A DNA stretch of 64,000 bases. Source: Escherichia coli. GTDB lineage: Bacteria; Pseudomonadota; Gammaproteobacteria; Enterobacterales; Enterobacteriaceae. The position numbers and the translations under genes are program-made. Shown in pieces: positions 13,268-22,053 of the stretch; position 1 is the stretch's first letter, and every line of letters begins with the position of its first letter. A model generated the notes under the pieces. It was not told the DNA's origin. It made no database searches and saw only the letters and a program-made list of their open reading frames with translations. Location of the stretch: NCBI RefSeq assembly GCF_041886205.1, contig NZ_CP169029.1. One strand, written 5' to 3'.

Positions 13268-13304
13268 AAAAATAAAACCCACAGAAATATGCCATTTCTA
13301 TGGG
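13268..13304 (-). terminator. Rho-independent terminator downstream of the MFS transporter gene
   Basis: Minus-strand hairpin CCCATAGAAATGGCATATTTCTGTGGG followed by TTTTATTTTT. Confidence 0.55.
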
Positions 13305-13325
13305 CTTCGTAAGAATCAATATATT

Positions 13326-14609
13326 TTAGTTACATTTAGCTCTAAGTGTTTGTAGTTTCATCGCAATGAGTAAAAGGACAACAAGAATAAGTGATAACGT
13401 TAAGAGAAGAGCATAGAAACCATTCCAGTGGTATATTTCTATTATTTTAGACAATGGATAGCCAGCCGCGGATGCACCAAGATATGCGAATAAACTAACA
13501 AAACCAGTAGAAGCACCAGATGCATATTTATGTGAGTTTTCAGCAGCTGCCATTGCGATCAGAAATTGTGGACCAAAGATAAAGAAGCCAGTGATGAAAA
13601 ATAACAACGAAAAAACATATTTACTATCGATAGAAACCAACCATAGACATGCAGAAGCAATGATTATACCAATTGTATAAATAACATTCATTTGAGAGCG
13701 ATTGCCCTTAAACAGAATATCTGATCCCCATCCAGCTACGATAGCACCAAAAAAGCCTCCAACCTCAAACATCATTACTGTTGCATTTGCTGTTAGCAAG
13801 TCATATTTATGAGTCTCAATCAAATACAAATTTCCCCAGTCATTGATTCCTGTACGAATAACATAAATAACTGCATATGATATTGCCAATACCCAAATTA
13901 TATTATTTTTAAATATATAATCTTTTAAGATATTCCATTGTGACAACCCTATACCTTGTTCTTCATGATTAATCTCAGCTATATCATTACGCCACTCTCC
14001 AACTGTTGGTAATCCCATCGATCTTGGTCGATCACGCAATAAGAAACATAATAAAATGCCAATAATAACAGCAATGGCCCCCGGAATAATCATGCCATAA
14101 CGCCAACCTAGCCATAAGGCAACACTACCTGATAAAATAGGGATAATTGCTCCACCGATATTATGAGATGTATTCCATATGGACCACCAGAATCCACGTT
14201 CATTTCGGGAATACCAAGTATTTAAAATTTTTGAACACGGAGGCCATCCCCATCCCTGAAAAAAAGCATTAACCATCCATAAAAATATAAACAAAGGTAT
14301 AGATGATGTTAAACCAAACAATATATTGACACATCCAGTCATTATCAATCCAATCCCCATAAACCATCTTGGATTAGAACGATCACCTATAACTCCAGAA
14401 ATAAATTTTGATGCCCCATAAGTTAGATAAAATGCCGTTCCGACCATACCAATATCTGATTTTGTAATACCTAAATCAGATAGCATCTCAGGCATTACGA
14501 AGTTAAAGCTCTTTCGTGTGAAATAAAATACAGCATATCCTATATAGCTCACAATCATTAAATGAAGTCGCCAATATCTATATGTTTTATCAATATCAGT
14601 TTTACTCAT
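13326..14609 (-). CDS. MFS transporter, organophosphate:phosphate antiporter family (UhpC/UhpT/GlpT/PgtP-like)
   Basis: About 427 aa, 12 predicted hydrophobic segments, family-typical motifs (DRSNPRWF, FFQGWGWPP); AT-rich; likely start MSKTDIDK at 14609. Confidence 0.7.
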   Translation of the reverse strand: MSKTDIDKTYRYWRLHLMIVSYIGYAVFYFTRKSFNFVMPEMLSDLGITKSDIGMVGTAFYLTYGASKFISGVIGDRSNPRWFMGIGLIMTGCVNILFGLTSSIPLFIFLWMVNAFFQGWGWPPCSKILNTWYSRNERGFWWSIWNTSHNIGGAIIPILSGSVALWLGWRYGMIIPGAIAVIIGILLCFLLRDRPRSMGLPTVGEWRNDIAEINHEEQGIGLSQWNILKDYIFKNNIIWVLAISYAVIYVIRTGINDWGNLYLIETHKYDLLTANATVMMFEVGGFFGAIVAGWGSDILFKGNRSQMNVIYTIGIIIASACLWLVSIDSKYVFSLLFFITGFFIFGPQFLIAMAAAENSHKYASGASTGFVSLFAYLGASAAGYPLSKIIEIYHWNGFYALLLTLSLILVVLLLIAMKLQTLRAKCN

Positions 14610-14956
14610 TGTTATTTCTTTGTCAGGAGACTCTGAAAATATGGACATATATAACCTCTTTTATTATGAAATATTTTCAATAATAATCCGTTAGTAATCC
14701 TATCATAGGGTAATGCCTCATCATGTTAAAATGATCACATTTATAATCATGTCAAAAAGAACAACAGAAAAAATGATTTAAAATCAATTAAATATAATTT
14801 CAACATATTGTTGTTATTAAAACATTGGTGGTAAATGTAAAGCGAGAACAGTTTGTAACAGTGACTCCTTGCAGACTAAGTTAGAGTCTCCTGATCTTAC
14901 CCAGCAATAGTGGACACGCGGCTAAGTGAGTAAACTCTCAGTCAGAGGTGACTCAC

Positions 14957-16248: not shown

Positions 16249-17885
16249 TTACAGAACGAGGTTCCAGTGCAACAACTCTTCCACCCGGTTTGACGGCCAT
16301 TCACTGATACAGCTGATGACCTCACGCAACCAGCTTTCCGGATCCACTCCTTTCAGCCAGCATGTCGCCAGCAGGCTGTACAGGATCGCTGCGCTCTGAC
16401 CTCCCGTGTCTGAGCCGAAGAATAGCCAGTTGCGTCGCCCTAGGGCGACACAACGCAGTGTGTTTTCTGCGATATTATTGTCCAGCTCCACACGCCCGTC
16501 CTCACAACAGAGCGACAGCGATTCACGGTGGTTCAGCATATAGCTGAACGCTTTCCCCAGCTCTGCATGCACCGACAACGTCTCCATCTGTTCTGTCAGC
16601 CACGCGAACAACGCCTTCATCTGCGGGACGCTTTTCTCCTGCCGTTCTGCCAGCCGTTTCTCTGCCGGTGACCCCGGATTGTCGCTTCCACCACATACAG
16701 CCCGGCTATATGCTTCAGCGCCTCCGTTGTCATCGCTGCCGGCCGGCGAACATGCTCATCATGGATCTTTCTCCTTGCATGCGCCATGCAGGCGGCTTCC
16801 CTGATCCGCCCTGACTCATAAAGCGCATCGTAACCGGCAAACGCATCTGCCTGCAGGATACCTTTCCACTCCGCCAGATGCCCCTGCGGGTGACAGCCCC
16901 GACGATCTGCACTGTAAGCGAACCACGCCGCTGGCGGAGCCGCTGAACCGCGGTTCCGGTCATCGAGCACATACACCCACAGCCGGCCCGTCCGGGTTTT
17001 ACCGCTCCCCGGCTCCAGCACTTTCACCGGGGTGTCGTCCGTGTGCTATTTGCTGCTCTCTCTCCATCACGTAGCGGTTCAGCGCATCGTGCAGGGGACT
17101 GAGTCGTTCTGCGGTCATCGCCACCCACCGGACCAGCGTGTTTCGGCTCAGTTCCACACCCTGGTGGCTGAAGATGACGGACTGACGATGCAGCGGGGTA
17201 TGGTCACAGTATTTACTCACCAGGATGCGGGCCAGCAGGTCCGCACCGGCCACACTGCGGGTCAGCGGTTTCGGGGGAGTGGTGCCTGGACTATCACATC
17301 GCAGCGGCTGCAGGCCAGCTTCGGGCGCACCGTTTCGATGACCTTAAAGGAGCTGCGGATTATCTCCAGTTGCTCTGAGACGGTTTCACTCATAACCTTC
17401 AGGTCGCCGCCGCATTTCGGGCAGACAGTCTCTGTCGGGGGGATGCGCCGGGTTTCACGTGACAGGTCTGCCGGCAGTTTCTGACGACGGGAGCGGCGTG
17501 CAGGCCGGTCCTGTGGGGCGACCGCCACCGGGGGCTCTGCCTGCTCAACCGTACCGACAGCGGGCTCATCGTCCTGCAGACAGCGTTTTGCCGCTGCAAG
17601 ACGGTTTTCCAGCTCAGCCAGCCGCTTCTCTGCCTGGCGGATTTTATTTTCCAGTTTATTGCGGCTTTTCTCCGAACTCTGCCCGAACAGCATCCGCCGC
17701 AGCTTATCAAGCTGTGCCTTCAGCCGTTCGATTTCCTGTTCGTAGTCGGCAACCTGTCCGGCGTACTGGCGCAGCCGGGCCTGCTGCTTTTTCATGGTAA
17801 CATTTAGCTGTTCCACAGCAACCTGCTGCTGACGCAACAGGGCTTTCAGCTGGTCGATATTATCAGGAAGCGGGATATTTTTCAT
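16249..17885 (-). pseudogene. IS66-family tnpC pseudogene (multiple frameshifts)
   Basis: Four consecutive minus-strand ORF pieces (17262..17885, 16999..17253, 16617..17027, 16249..16620) together resemble one TnpC. Confidence 0.7.
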
Positions 17886-17904
17886 CCTGCCCAGGTAAAG
17901 GGAT

Positions 17905-18252
17905 TCAGATCCGCAGACTATTACTTTTCGACCTTCCCGGTTGCATCCAGACTATACCCTCCAGCAGCATGGCAAGCTGTGCCGGGGTCAGATACACCTT
18001 TCCCTCCCGGGCGACCGGCCAGATGAACGTTCCCCGTTCAAGTCTTTTCATATAGATGCAGAGCCCTCCGCTGTCTGCCCACAGGAGTTTTACCAGCCTG
18101 CCCCTGCGTCCCCGGAAGATGAAGAGATGGCCGGAGATCGGGTCATCCTTCAGGGTGTTCTGGACCTTTGCGGCCAGACCGTTGAAGCCGTTTCTCATGT
18201 CGGTGATGCCGGCCACGAGCCAGATAAGGCAGCCAGCCGGAAGCGTAATCAT
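17905..18252 (-). CDS. IS66-family TnpB (orfB)
   Basis: 115 aa, close homologue of the orfB at 9686..10033. Confidence 0.8.
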   Translation of the reverse strand: MITLPAGCLIWLVAGITDMRNGFNGLAAKVQNTLKDDPISGHLFIFRGRRGRLVKLLWADSGGLCIYMKRLERGTFIWPVAREGKVYLTPAQLAMLLEGIVWMQPGRSKSNSLRI

Positions 18253-18659
18253 ACTGTGCTCCTGCCGGCGAGTTCGCGGACGATCCGGAGCTGTTTCTCC
18301 GGGTCAGGATTGTCGAGTGTGAGGGTGCCGTGGCGAAGCGTCAGCGAGCAGGTTGACCCCGTTCCCTGACCAGACAGAGCCGGAGACTGCCGGGTGGTGG
18401 AGTCAGGTACAATTTCGACCGGAAGTGCCGCAGGAGGGGATACAGATGGAACGGGAGCTGGCAGCCGGCGGAATACCCGGCCTTCTTTACGCCACAGACG
18501 GATCCATTTAAAAAGGACGTTATCGTTGACCCCGTGCGTACGGGCAATATCCGCAACATTGGCGTCCGGTCGGGTAGCCAGTTCGACCAGCCTGAGTTTG
18601 AATTCGCTGGAATAAACGCGGCGGGGTTCGGTCCGCCAGGCCCGGGTTTCAGATTCCAT
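18249..18659 (-). CDS. IS66-family orfA
   Basis: 136 aa; FKLRLVELATRPDANVADIARTHGVNDNVLFKWIR motif. Confidence 0.75.
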   Translation of the reverse strand: MESETRAWRTEPRRVYSSEFKLRLVELATRPDANVADIARTHGVNDNVLFKWIRLWRKEGRVFRRLPAPVPSVSPPAALPVEIVPDSTTRQSPALSGQGTGSTCSLTLRHGTLTLDNPDPEKQLRIVRELAGRSTV

Positions 18660-18796
18660 AACTTAGATGTCCGTCTGTTTCAGATGGGCGTCTAAGTTAG
18701 CGTTTTCACTCGACTGCCTGAAGACGTCTCTGACGGGTCGCTTACGTAAAATCAACCACGGGAAGCTCAACGGTGAAGTACTTTACCAGTTGATCA

Positions 18797-19288: not shown

Positions 19289-19789
19289 ATGAACAACACA
19301 GACTCATTAGAAAAAATAATCAAACATCAACAAAACAACGATCCAAAATACCCCTGCCAGGAGCATCTGTTGATACAACTCTGTATCCGCGTAAACAAAA
19401 AAATACAGGATAATATATCGAGTTTACTCAGTGGATATGGAATAAATTATTAAACATATATGGTTCTTACCATATTATCCACAGCAGATAATCATTGTCT
19501 TTCGCCCTCAAAGATAAGCAGAGAACTCCAGTTTACCAGAACAAACATTACCCGCATTACAGATTTTTTAGAAAAAGCAGGGTATATAGAAAGAACTGAT
19601 AGCAGAGAGGATCGCCGTGCTAAAAAAATCAGTCTGACATCAGATGGTCTGTCCTTTATTCAGAACGTCAATATTGCACAAAGTCTGCACCTGAAAGAAA
19701 TCTGGAGCCCGCTGACCCATGCAGAGTGTGAACTGTTTGAAGACATTAATAAAAAATTACTGACGCATATTGCTGATGTGTGTCCCTAA
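19289..19789 (+). pseudogene. MarR-family regulator (PapX/SfaX-like) with in-frame TAA at 19451-19453
   Basis: Single frame reads MNNTDSLEKIIKHQQNNDPKYPCQEHLLIQLCIRVNKKIQDNISSLLSGYGINY*TYMVLTILSTADNHCLSPSKISRELQFTRTNITRITDFLEKAGYIERTDSREDRRAKKISLTSDG...; winged-helix MarR signature with DRR motif. Confidence 0.5.
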
Positions 19790-20460
19790 AGCATGAAGAG
19801 TTTGAGGAAACTGAAGAGCTTCAAGCAATGAATCATATAATAAGCAGGCATAAGAGCGACATAACTACAGGCGGAAACAGCGATACAAGAAAACTACTGG
19901 TTTAGGTCACAATGCAGCAAAATGACAAACTCATACGACGGTTCTTGTGAATGATGCGGTGCCTAACCCGCAAATATCAGCATGATTCACCGTAGAACTT
20001 ACTGATACAAGATAACGTAATGATTGAGCTTATCTCATATGGGGTAACGCGCAATAAAAATAGTTGCAACATTGTTTATAATTGTTCAATCTATCTTATT
20101 TTTATTAATATAGTTGAGCTTCTCAACACATTACTTTAAAGTTCTACACTAAAGAGAACAAAATTATCACAACGGATATGGAGATACTTTCAGGCCAGTC
20201 AAACCGGTTTAACTGATATGGTTGAATACACGCTTGACTATGAATGGTTTATGGTATTCAGTCCCGATAACTATGGGGCCAGTTTTGTGTAGCTTTCAAC
20301 TTTAGTTGTTTTCACTCATCATAGATGATGCAATAAAAACATCATTTTCTCACGCATTGCATATTGCTGGTATATCCATATCGCATGTAGCACAGAGTGT
20401 TGACTAAATTATAGAAATATGATTTTTTATCTCATTGACAAAGAAGTTAAGGACCGAGAG

Positions 20461-20886
20461 ATGAGTTTTAATACCACACACGAGAAATCTGAAATCTATC
20501 GTCTGATCCTTAGAGAAAGTGAACTCATTACAGCATGGGTAAAATCTGGAGACACGCCGTCAGCAGTTTACGGAAAACTACGTGATAAAAACCCGGATAT
20601 AATCTTTTCGATAAATGGCTTTTTATATAACCTACGTAACTTTAACTATGCACTATATGAAACAGCCACAAAGAACAAAAGCAAAACAAGGTTAATAATA
20701 CTCAACCATTATGATGATATTGCATCAGCTATCCGTGCTGGTCATACGCTTAAAGGTGTTTACAAACTCGTATGCCCACATATAACATATAACTGTTTTA
20801 TTACACAACTCAGGAAAACCTATCCTGACCTGCATTCTCAGGGTAAAGCGAATCGCAGCAACAAAAACAGAATAATAGCTAACTGA
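20461..20886 (+). CDS. Hypothetical protein (141 aa), AT-rich orphan
   Basis: ORF with AAGGA Shine-Dalgarno 9 nt upstream of ATG at 20461; no recognisable motif. Confidence 0.4.
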   Translation: MSFNTTHEKSEIYRLILRESELITAWVKSGDTPSAVYGKLRDKNPDIIFSINGFLYNLRNFNYALYETATKNKSKTRLIILNHYDDIASAIRAGHTLKGVYKLVCPHITYNCFITQLRKTYPDLHSQGKANRSNKNRIIAN

Positions 20887-21194
20887 TGATATATAAAATG
20901 TTTTACACTATATCTTTTATTGTAACTAAAATTACTTTGATCCTACAAAAAGAAAGGTAAGAAGGGGTTTAAAAGATCATCACGAGACAACTGTTCTAGT
21001 TTTTTAAGCCCCCCATTAATTTAAAAAGCAGATACCAAGCATGAATAAGATTATATAAATTTCATTACATACAATTCATTACTGTCCGGACAAATATTGT
21101 TGTTTATAAAATATAACACACCAATTGTAAAGCTGTGAGCTCATGCTACTTTTAACAGAATTTTTAAACAAGAGGGAATGGGAGACCATTAATA

Positions 21195-21380
21195 ATGCAA
21201 GAAACAAAAACCAACCGCAAATCTAACTGTACAAACTGCAATATTCCTGGATGTAAGCAAACCCCATTTTGCAAGTACTGTCGTAGTGTCAAAGACATAT
21301 CCGGAGCTAGACGCTCTTTATATCTCCATGTAGCAATATTCATCATTATTATTGTACTTACTATTATTTCAGTACTTTGA
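21195..21380 (+). CDS. Hypothetical small Cys-rich protein with hydrophobic C-terminal segment
   Basis: 61 aa; CTNCNIPGCKQTPFCKYC cysteine cluster followed by a hydrophobic stretch (VAIFIIIIVLTIISVL); Shine-Dalgarno-like GGGAG upstream. Confidence 0.25.
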   Translation: MQETKTNRKSNCTNCNIPGCKQTPFCKYCRSVKDISGARRSLYLHVAIFIIIIVLTIISVL

Positions 21381-22053
21381 CAAGCCTTTTTGCACCAACT
21401 GATGTACACAATCAGATTTCAGCCTGTCCGTAATAATTATATTTGATATTACATTAACGCTCTTTAACTGTAGGACAGCACAGCGTAAATTGTTGAATAG
21501 TTCATTTAAAAAATCATAAGGATAAAAAACCAACACTTAAAACATTGTTCTTTTTCAAGAACACATATTTAAATAAAATAACAAACCGCTACCAACTTTA
21601 AAACATTAAAAAAACTGTGAGAGATTACTCTGAAAAGAGTTCATAGCTTTTTAATAAACCATATAAAGTAAACAATACATATGTTAACCCCCCAGAAAAA
21701 ACGTGACAAGAACATAACACCATAAGCAGATACCATATACACGCACACCACCATAACGAATTGGTCACTGGTTCATGACAAACCGTTCATAATTGCTAAA
21801 AATATTAATACACCATCATATAGACTTTCATGTCTAATGAAAAAATATTTATACTCCAGAATAGCCACAACCTTTATAAAATTCAGCTCATTAGAATATA
21901 AATGCATATGCCAATGAACAGAATACATTCTCATCCTTATTGAGGAACATACTGCCTGAGAGAAAAATCATCACTCAGACTTTGAAATAACATTGTCGAA
22001 TTCATATTATACAAAAGGGGAGTCATTCCCCTTTTTTAGCTTAGGTACTCAGT

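Follow-up and report, generated by a model that had tools for sequence, protein, structure and literature searches.

An AT-rich Escherichia coli island cassette of a MarR-family gene, a putative tandem helix-turn-helix protein and a small Cys-cluster protein with a predicted tail anchor

Introduction

An AT-rich insert with a regulatory role is part of the iol island of Salmonella (PMC6288124, PMC10783015), and regulation of the iol genes there involves ReiD, a member of the AraC family (PMC9430895), together with the small RNA RssR. The E. coli chromosomal region described here lies within a stretch of 64,000 nucleotides (the window) and likewise places AT-rich DNA beside iol genes. It encodes a MarR-family regulator and two proteins of 141 and 61 residues, termed orf141 and orf61. 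Several small regulators of virulence and adhesins that E. coli acquired horizontally, namely PerC/Pch, PapB, Hha and MarR-type proteins like SlyA and PapX, are, as is orf141, encoded by short genes in AT-rich islands, although none has a sequence relationship to it. [quoted passage not shown] All occur on DNA that is mobile or has been acquired horizontally. orf141 differs from both in carrying two modules in tandem, with neither the catalytic DDE domain nor the StbA-type C-terminal domain.

For orf61 the nearest parallels are small membrane proteins. ElaB and YqjD are C-tail-anchored inner-membrane proteins of E. coli, Hok and TisB are type I toxins, and MgrB is a small membrane regulator. 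With ElaB and YqjD, orf61 shares a basic stretch and, after it, one hydrophobic helix placed right at the C-terminus. With Hok, TisB and MgrB it shares small size, one hydrophobic helix and the fact of having been missed by annotation, but it differs from these three in its C-terminal anchor, its predicted cytoplasmic Cys knuckle and the absence of an Rfam antisense RNA or a family match. The N-terminus recalls those of the zinc_ribbon_2/DZR type, with two CxxC pairs 10 residues apart and an F-C-x-Y-C second knuckle. Unlike zinc-ribbon-plus-transmembrane proteins, however, orf61 has a fifth conserved Cys, totals just 61 residues and has neither an extracytoplasmic domain nor a Pfam match.

A three-gene cassette beside the iol genes

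The coordinates and sequences first given for orf141 and orf61 match those obtained on re-checking (Table 1). The original prediction placed both reading frames in AT-rich DNA between a regulator and the iol genes, and this description holds: they lie between a MarR pseudogene and iolB, and the GC content across 19.0–22.0 kb is 31–37%, compared with 55–65% in the iol genes. The further description of the two as orphans has to be abandoned, since together with the MarR gene they make up a cassette which is also found away from iol genes.

Table 1. Features of the cassette and its borders (positions in the window)
Feature	Position	Strand	Basis or remark
Leading gene of the cassette, for a MarR-family regulator	19289..19789	+	MprA model, E 8.6e-25; PGAP annotation
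Island-specific spacer of ~500 bp, without counterpart in the L011 cassette	19790..20293		
Conserved region upstream of orf141, presumed promoter/operator, with AAGGA RBS	20294..20460	+	
orf141, WP_000009634.1	20461..20886	+	All-helical; two homologous ~57-residue repeats
orf141–orf61 spacer, unalignable between cassette versions	20887..21194		
GGAG Shine–Dalgarno, separated by 10 nt from the orf61 ATG	21181..21184	+	
orf61, small-protein gene without RefSeq annotation	21195..21380	+	60%-identical homologue in L011/L012/L013; dN/dS 0.24
Cys cluster C-x2-C-x4-C-x5-C-x2-C, residues 12–29	21228..21281	+	Invariant in both versions; zinc-knuckle- or mini-zinc-ribbon-like
C-terminal hydrophobic segment (predicted tail anchor), preceded by basic DISGARRSL	21318..21377	+	Kyte–Doolittle; AlphaFold2
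GC-rich hairpin with T and A runs on either side, just past the iolB stop	22017..22036		

In the window strain the MarR gene is interrupted by a stop codon after codon 54 and is a pseudogene; in ATCC 8739 it is intact (166 aa). It belongs to the winged-helix MarR family by its PGAP annotation and its match to the MprA model (E = 8.6e-25, under the curated equivalog cutoff). The cassette resides on a tRNA-Arg island that roughly 0.8% of complete E. coli genomes possess, and directly adjoins iolB in 45/45 island-bearing complete genomes. Remnants of defence genes (DUF262, a DEAD/DEAH helicase and a BREX ATPase fragment) are found upstream on the island.

A diverged second version of the cassette occurs on another E. 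coli island, in the contigs L011, L012 and L013, which carry no iol genes. Here genes for a MarR protein, a 143 aa protein and a 62 aa protein retain the same order and orientation, with amino acid identities to the window version of 61%, 78% and 60%, respectively. The MarR copy in L011 matches Pfam MarR/MarR_2, and the surroundings of that cassette comprise a DUF465 gene and a ParB-like/PAPS-reductase pair. MarR, orf141 and orf61 therefore travel as one unit, which neighbours the iol cluster without a tie to inositol catabolism as such. The seemingly orphaned MarR gene is part of this mobile three-gene unit and not of inositol metabolism.

Control of the adjoining iol genes by orf141 and orf61, in the manner of ReiD and RssR, would account for the constant proximity to iolB and has a precedent in the AT-rich insert of the Salmonella island (PMC6288124, PMC10783015). 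It is nevertheless very unlikely. The L011 cassette does without iol genes, the cassette is ~25 points lower in GC content than the iol genes, and iolB is convergent with the cassette and closed off by a probable terminator. Moreover, ReiD is an AraC-family protein (PMC9430895), whilst orf141 gives no match to HTH_AraC or HTH_18 and lacks the marks of a ReiD-type iol activator. The ReiD/RssR analogy was rejected on the grounds of family membership and of the cassettes without iol genes.

orf141, a tandem-repeat protein of a rare family

Translation of orf141 is placed at the ATG at 20461 in preference to an in-frame ATG at 20419, which would give 155 aa, because the former agrees with the homologues and with RefSeq (WP_000009634.1). 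When the AT-rich stretch is simulated as a first-order Markov chain, 1% of the simulations contain a reading frame of at least 141 aa. The protein is a tandem duplication of one ~57-residue helical module: its repeats span residues ~8–70 and ~74–134, a comparison of half with half by hhalign gives E = 1.3e-9 at 96% probability, and the AlphaFold2 model (pLDDT 81) is all helical.

Profile comparisons suggest that orf141 is probably a tandem helix-turn-helix DNA-binding protein. The pattern of the module, G-x-S/T-L-x-x-[IV]-[YH]-x-x-L ... [ST]-[YF]-x-x-F-x-x-x-L-[RK]-x-x-Y-P-[DE]-L, aligns at sub-significance to helix 2, turn and helix 3 of StbA (10.1101/2022.04.29.490116) and to residues 23–60 of the IS26 transposase. 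The repeat profile finds the StbA helix-turn-helix at a weak, sub-significant E = 0.064, and a single-repeat profile finds the same IS26 residues at an hhalign E = 1e-4, again weak and counted as sub-significant. The full-length profile yields no meaningful alignment to the IS26 transposase, and a PDB sequence search with full-length profiles returned chance-level matches only. A relative with seven repeats (P0013) matches the N-terminal region of the IS6 transposase model with E = 1e-9 when the whole protein is scored, each stretch alone lying below threshold.

Four versions of orf141, at 57–77% identity, are conserved end to end, and the family has only 10 representatives among 1.84 billion proteins. 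A metagenome scan retrieved solely E. coli-like loci, of which 11 were near-identical copies and one belonged to the EC476 type. The relatives adjoin PerC genes (in three separate contexts), MarR, Hha and PapB/AraC genes and a fimbrial operon. Since only the MarR-linked branch comes with orf61, and the PerC-linked relatives lack it, orf61 is no general partner of the family. The recurrence of orf141 relatives in pathogenicity-type islands suggests that the family may bear on the switching-on of acquired virulence and adhesin genes. Since one relative sits just upstream of a PerC gene, identity with PerB was considered, and rejected, as the PerB of pMAR2 is by eye unrelated.

Neither orf141 nor orf61 has a significant match in NCBIfam, Pfam, PHROGs or PADLOC, in keeping with the initial view that they belong to no recognisable family, and literature searches by protein accession and keyword returned nothing on either. 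No matches were obtained by tblastn of the family members orf141, P0006 and P0007 against PLSDB (72,556 plasmids) or of orf141 against GenBank phages, and IMG/VR scans for both families recovered no relatives. A plasmid or phage origin was rejected on these results. The role in phage exclusion that had been envisaged finds no backing either. A phage-exclusion or defence module formed by the two proteins would sit naturally downstream of the defence-gene remnants of the island, but is extremely improbable given that neither matches any PADLOC model of known anti-phage defence or any PHROG, that the phage and viral collections hold no relatives, and that the relatives adjoin regulator and adhesin genes, not defence genes.

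orf61, an unannotated small-protein gene

The AT-rich stretch contains four reading frames of at least 61 aa where a first-order Markov model predicts 2.6 +/- 1.6. Because its length alone falls short of significance, the reality of orf61 rests on conservation. Between the two cassette versions dN/dS is 0.08 for MarR, 0.26 for orf141 and 0.24 for orf61, and for the last a Fisher test of synonymous against non-synonymous changes gives p = 6e-5, from a single pairwise comparison over 61 codons. Frame +0 is the sole frame open in both versions, the antisense reading frame being broken in L011, and the 150-nt flanks of orf61 are no more alike in the window and L011 than shuffled sequence. Conservation is thus confined to the coding frame, which argues that orf61 is a genuine small-protein gene. 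Judged by their substitution patterns, both orf141 and orf61 are protein-coding and have evolved under purifying selection. The original prediction was to be given up in the event of no conservation beyond this strain; the check was run, and because conservation exists, in the form of the 60%-identical homologue of orf61, that objection fails.

The opposing view, that orf61 is a chance reading frame or a decaying remnant and that its similarity to L011 arises from something other than selection on a protein, draws on several observations. Chance would be expected to yield frames this long in such DNA, RefSeq annotates none here, nucleotide diversity in orf61 is the highest at the locus (pi = 0.0149), and the frame is disrupted in about 10/45 complete genomes. 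Just two sequence versions are known, and the searches found no relatives in species-representative genomes and none outside E. coli. Such a view is nonetheless unlikely, for it leaves unexplained a similarity restricted to orf61, the synonymous excess in the one shared open frame, the presence in both versions of a start codon and Shine–Dalgarno sequence (GAGG in L011, at a similar distance), and the retention of key protein features at an overall identity of 60%.

These features include all five Cys residues (C12-x2-C15-x4-C20-x5-C26-x2-C29), the NIPGC and DISGARRSL stretches and the C-terminal hydrophobic helix. The best 19-residue Kyte–Doolittle mean is 2.85 (residues 42–60), with 3.14 in L011. 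AlphaFold2 predicts a helix over residues 24–60, with pLDDT 85–95 over residues 41–61, so that the predicted protein has the single hydrophobic helix within the last ~25 residues, and no signal peptide, expected of a tail anchor. Both versions carry the two conserved CxxC pairs of a putative zinc knuckle. However, the model has a pLDDT of about 55 over residues 10–40, with no beta hairpins and no predicted zinc ribbon, and no Pfam zinc-ribbon model matches even at E <= 10. The early characterisation of the small protein as membrane-anchored and zinc-ribbon-like is therefore supported at the level of predicted features, which are conserved in the homologue. The locus adds to the E. coli accessory genome a well-supported, unannotated small protein of predicted membrane location and an uncharacterised family of DNA-binding type.

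Recurrent loss of orf61

Among island-bearing genomes the two genes have fared differently. The ribosome-binding site and start codon of orf61 are unchanged in 33/45 complete genomes; about 9/45 have lost the start through an ATG to ATA change, and one of the 45 has TAA at codon 2 together with an 11-bp deletion, so that roughly a fifth carry a disrupted gene. At least two of these knock-outs in complete genomes are independent, and two more are seen in lower-quality assemblies. In a sample of 14 sequences, orf61 shows the ATG to ATA change, a nonsense mutation and a frameshift, whilst orf141 has four variable sites, three of them synonymous and the other I47V. No lesion of orf141 was seen wherever it was examined in these genomes. 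Polymorphism among intact orf61 alleles is mostly synonymous, and the gene is therefore not simply drifting. It provides a natural example of a conserved gene that is knocked out repeatedly, in which the question of cost, benefit and toxicity is easy to test.

Repeated loss is equally compatible with a gene that is costly or toxic and with one that is dispensable. The main rival to a regulatory role is that orf61 is a small membrane toxin, either standing alone or toxin-antitoxin-like with repression by orf141 or MarR, whose losses reflect the cost of leaky expression. Its shortness and very hydrophobic helix, the repeated knock-outs beside an orf141 in which no lesion was seen where examined and the synonymous character of its surviving variation would all be in keeping with this. 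The idea is nevertheless doubtful. In Pfam, NCBIfam and PADLOC orf61 has no match to a toxin family, and an Rfam search of 18.5–22.5 kb at E <= 1 gave no antisense or other RNA family except a chance histone stem-loop match. A conserved Cys knuckle and an anchor at the C-terminus instead of the N-terminus are unlike the known type I toxins, and the gap to orf141 (308 bp in the window, 228 bp in L011) is unlike the close spacing of type II operons, for which a toxin or antitoxin match is also missing.

A putative regulatory cassette

The most likely function is regulatory, the cassette including a membrane-anchored partner that is dispensable, and it is the gene neighbourhoods of the relatives (PerC, MarR, Hha, PapB and AraC) which favour a regulatory role. 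A probability of roughly one half is given to this reading of the region as an AT-rich, horizontally acquired cassette of a MarR gene, tandem-repeat orf141 and tail-anchored, Cys-cluster orf61. orf141 would bind DNA through two helix-turn-helix-like units and, in the manner of the PerC, PapB, AraC, Hha and MarR proteins encoded beside its relatives, would be a transcription factor for horizontally acquired DNA that H-NS probably silences. orf61 would insert into the inner membrane via its C-terminal helix. Its putative metal-binding knuckle would face the cytoplasm, a prediction made by applying the positive-inside rule to the GARRSL stretch. orf61 may be a dispensable modulator that acts from the membrane, for instance by tethering or titrating a regulator of the cassette.

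A more elaborate and decidedly speculative version would make orf61, as a tail-anchored zinc-knuckle peptide, the membrane arm of a three-part switch, reversibly tethering the tandem helix-turn-helix or MarR protein to the inner membrane until a redox or metal signal, sensed via the five Cys residues, releases the regulator. If true, this would be a miniature, anti-sigma-like form of sequestration for xenogeneic regulators, turning on acquired genes. Unless the cassette is shown to have a regulatory or toxic activity, its impact is likely to be modest.

Non-coding elements

The region upstream of orf141 is the likely operator in the regulatory reading. Positions 20294–20410 align to the entire MarR–orf143 spacer of L011, with 89/117 aligned bases identical, and population diversity across 20294–20460 is low, at 1.2 SNP per 100 bp. 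A promoter scan found sites no more numerous than in shuffled sequence, and none upstream of orf61. The hairpin past iolB is probably a two-way terminator, closing both the cassette side and the iol operon. Strain 20KM2222 carries an IS1 insertion in the spacer that separates orf141 from orf61.

A conserved three-gene cassette in an AT-rich island

Both ORFs, orf141 and orf61, lie exactly at the positions originally predicted, in a stretch of 31–37% GC (19.0–22.05 kb) bordered on one side by insertion-sequence debris and on the other by the iol genes. RefSeq annotates orf141 as the hypothetical protein WP_000009634.1 and calls no gene at the position of orf61. The window belongs to an E. coli chromosome and across 2.85 kb is 100% identical to the bovine strains ZYB62 and ZYB39. 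The island stretch is present in about 45 of 5,426 complete E. coli genomes, adjoined every time by the iol cluster.

Features of the cassette and its surroundings in the window
Feature	Position	Strand	Remarks
uhpC-like MFS gene	~13300–14650		Alone amid IS66, IS3 and IS110 fragments
IS66-family element	16600–18660		tnpA, tnpB and a tnpC that is split into several frames; directly 5' of the cassette
Integrase-core fragment	~18.8–19.05 kb		
MarR-family regulator gene	19289–19789		Upstream of orf141
Island-specific spacer	19790–20293		~500 bp long, from the MarR stop to the conserved spacer
Conserved spacer	20294–20410		~120 bp upstream of orf141; likely promoter or operator
orf141	20461–20886	+	141 aa
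Variant base	21180		Just 5' of GGAG
orf61	21195–21380	+	61 aa
AT-rich stretch	21381–22016		~640 bp between convergent orf61 and iolB
Deleted segment	21388–21441		54 bp, from 7 bp past the orf61 stop
AT-rich hairpin	21542–21586		
iolB, iolE, iolC		−	55–65% GC; other side from the IS66/IS3 debris

The ORFs had been described as orphans, which does not hold. A second, diverged version of the cassette on three E. coli contigs (L011, L012 and L013) carries a relative of orf141 at 78% identity directly 3' of a MarR gene, as in the window, and just 3' of this a homologue of orf61 at 60% identity, which tblastn with the 61-aa sequence as query picked out among the fetched loci and which has its own ATG and GAGG ribosome-binding site. 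The conservation beyond this strain for which the original prediction called is thus found for both genes. Downstream of the cassette in L011 come a DUF465 gene and a ParB-like/PAPS-reductase pair instead of iol genes. The unit is therefore MarR–orf141–orf61, independent of inositol catabolism. Regulation of the iol genes by the cassette, which their constant proximity in the island might suggest, is disfavoured since a copy exists without them.

Coding capacity and selection

Length says different things of the two ORFs. An ORF of at least 141 aa arose in 1% of first-order Markov simulations of the AT-rich stretch, whilst four ORFs of at least 61 aa were observed against 2.6 ± 1.6 expected; such ORFs are common by chance, and length alone is therefore no ground to accept orf61. 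A chance ORF is nevertheless disfavoured, since the conservation of orf61 is frame-specific. The window and L011 versions align ungapped at 70% nucleotide identity, whereas the 150 nt either side are at the shuffled level (93/150 identical versus 90 ± 3.3). Among the six frames compared, the proposed one alone is open in both versions, an 81-aa antisense ORF in the window being broken in L011. Nei–Gojobori estimates of dN/dS between the two cassettes were 0.08 for MarR, 0.26 for orf141 and 0.24 for orf61, the last from 23.2 synonymous differences in 40.5 sites and 30.8 non-synonymous differences in 142.5 sites (Fisher p = 6e-5). From these sequence comparisons we conclude that orf141 and orf61 are, or until recently were, genuine protein-coding genes, in the case of orf61 on a single pairwise comparison.

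The spacers differ in their conservation. The conserved spacer upstream of orf141 retains 89 of 117 aligned bases in the second cassette, and is likely to hold a promoter or operator. The island-specific spacer preceding it has no counterpart in the second cassette, where the whole spacer after MarR measures only 180 bp, although it is at least 99.3% identical across all 45 genomes.

The orf141 protein

The absence of a recognisable family, as originally stated, is borne out: NCBIfam, Pfam, PHROGs and PADLOC gave no significant match for either protein, the sole recurrent Pfam signal for orf141 being DUF5338 (best E = 3e-3). Only 10 members of the orf141 family came out of an exhaustive HMMER search covering 1.84 billion representative proteins. 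Relatives of orf141 at 78%, 58% and 59% identity are conserved end to end.

AlphaFold2, from a four-sequence alignment, predicts an all-helical protein (mean pLDDT 81), and the first half of orf141 is homologous to the second (hhalign E = 1.3e-9, probability 96%). P0013, a 417-aa relative from a sediment metagenome (L034, 413–1666), repeats the same ~57-residue unit about seven times in tandem. Structure comparison gave only weak neighbours, led by winged-helix and HTH DNA-binding domains, single or in tandem: histone H1, Fur, AraC-type domains and the N-termini of the TnsB, TnsD and Mos1 transposases. The best PDB match of a single-repeat profile is StbA of plasmid R388, below significance at E = 0.064, with the repeat aligning over helix 2, the turn and helix 3 of the crystallographic HTH (10.1101/2022.04.29.490116). 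The same profile aligns to residues 23–60 of the IS26 transposase, for which a verified sequence was used (hhalign E = 1e-4, probability 58%). P0013 matches the corresponding N-terminal region of the NCBIfam IS6 transposase model at a whole-protein E of 1e-9, no single stretch passing alone. Since no HTH-type match is significant by itself and the full-length orf141 profile failed to match the IS26 transposase, we infer a tandem HTH DNA-binding protein rather than assign membership of a known family.

The genes found around orf141 relatives are consistent with a regulatory role. The relatives adjoin PerC in three separate contexts. In other E. coli islands (fetched loci L003, 5502–6401; L005, 5610–6462; L018, 266–1057) they are paired with a PerC-family gene in either order, 15–190 bp apart, and each pair may work as a regulator of two genes in the vicinity of PapB, AraC and autotransporter genes. 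Other neighbours are PapB and AraC regulators with an autotransporter, a fimbrial operon with an EAL protein, Hha with conjugation genes, and PilI. Such surroundings are typical of small regulators that control adhesin and virulence genes gained by horizontal transfer. The identification of orf141 itself as PerB was ruled out on comparison with PerB.

The orf61 protein and its repeated loss

The small protein has a CxxC-x10-CxxC knuckle, whose two pairs enclose a fifth Cys, followed by a conserved basic stretch and a strongly hydrophobic C-terminal helix. Both versions share all five Cys, NIPGC, F-C-x-Y-C, DISGARRSL and the hydrophobic tail. It had been pictured as zinc-ribbon-like and membrane-anchored; the Cys pattern and tail are indeed conserved in L011, whilst no zinc-ribbon family in Pfam matched. 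By the established positive-inside rule the knuckle should lie on the cytoplasmic side. The AlphaFold2 model is unreliable for residues 1–40. Species-representative genomes and viral contigs yielded no relatives, and a search of 5.8 billion protein clusters, limited by the under-calling of small ORFs, returned island allele variants only, some of them disrupted.

Variation was examined in 14 island sequences (the window, two complete genomes, one Logan read-assembly contig and 10 metagenome contigs). In orf141 there are four variable sites in 426 bp, three synonymous and one I47V. Diversity is highest in orf61, with 12 variable columns in 186 bp; in an 11-sequence set, pi was 0.0149 for orf61, ~0.011 for the flanking spacers and 0.003 for orf141 and iolB. 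In this sample, alleles whose start is intact differ by a single amino-acid replacement (T6I) and by three synonymous changes. Those starting with ATA also carry P18L and R39K, at otherwise invariant positions, together with the 54-bp post-stop deletion of the RM11911-type lineage; P18L is also present in another database entry whose start is intact.

The 45 complete genomes were sorted with a 70-bp probe over the orf61 ribosome-binding site and start codon. In 33 this region is identical to the probe. The start is ATA in about nine, two verified directly and the others inferred from the same pattern of one mismatch plus deletion. Base 21180, a G, is changed in two, becoming T in LSN03-016011/A and A in EC15 (giving AGGAG); GGAG itself is kept in both. 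One genome, verified directly, has codon 2 changed from CAA to TAA and an 11-bp deletion in the tail. The small gene is thus dispensable, and complete genomes show at least two independent losses of it. A nonsense mutation in one low-coverage contig and a 2-bp insertion frameshift in another come from lower-quality assemblies and might be errors. In orf141 none of the sequences inspected showed a frameshift or stop. Decay also affects the cassette's first gene in some lineages: MarR, intact in ATCC 8739 and RM11911 (166 aa, WP_001066242.1), is interrupted by a stop after codon 54 in the window strain (ZYB62 type).

A probable mobile regulatory cassette

The evidence best supports reading the locus as a regulatory cassette that is mobile. 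In it, MarR and the tandem-HTH-like orf141 would bind and regulate acquired, probably H-NS-bound DNA, and orf61, small, Cys-bearing and tail-anchored, would serve as a modulator in the membrane that strains can dispense with. The chief alternative takes orf61 for a small membrane toxin, as was among the original suggestions, the cost of which would explain its repeated loss; the data cannot separate modulator from toxin. Phage exclusion, also proposed, is disfavoured, as no defence or phage link emerged from PADLOC, PHROGs or the phage and viral collections: tblastn of orf141 against plasmid and phage collections gave no match, nor were its relatives found in an IMG/VR scan. The parts of the cassette are familiar in kind, being a MarR regulator, an HTH-like repeat protein and a small membrane protein; what the families, structures and papers searched do not contain is the orf141 family, its architecture of tandem repeats or the combination of the three genes, and the literature search gave no description of either protein.

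Borders and flanking sequence

In ATCC 8739 the island begins at a tRNA-Arg gene with an integrase. In the window the IS66-family element and integrase-core fragment lie 5' of the cassette, so the left border has been cut by insertion sequences. The whole MarR–orf141–orf61–iol island is two-fold in some complete genomes, four records giving two places; in E. coli CE0011b (L035) the copies lie at 1.61 and 3.83 Mb, with the upstream DUF262, helicase and IS3 flank. One genome has an IS1 element inserted between orf141 and orf61.

The stretch between orf61 and iolB has many SNPs and indels in the population, and no annotated gene, conserved ORF or Rfam family was found in it; its hairpin matches Histone3 at chance level only. 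The GC content of the uhpC-like gene drops to 28–38% in its last ~650 bp, the part profiled, and farther upstream lie a TNT-domain toxin fragment and an 'immunity 63' gene (ZYB62 annotation).
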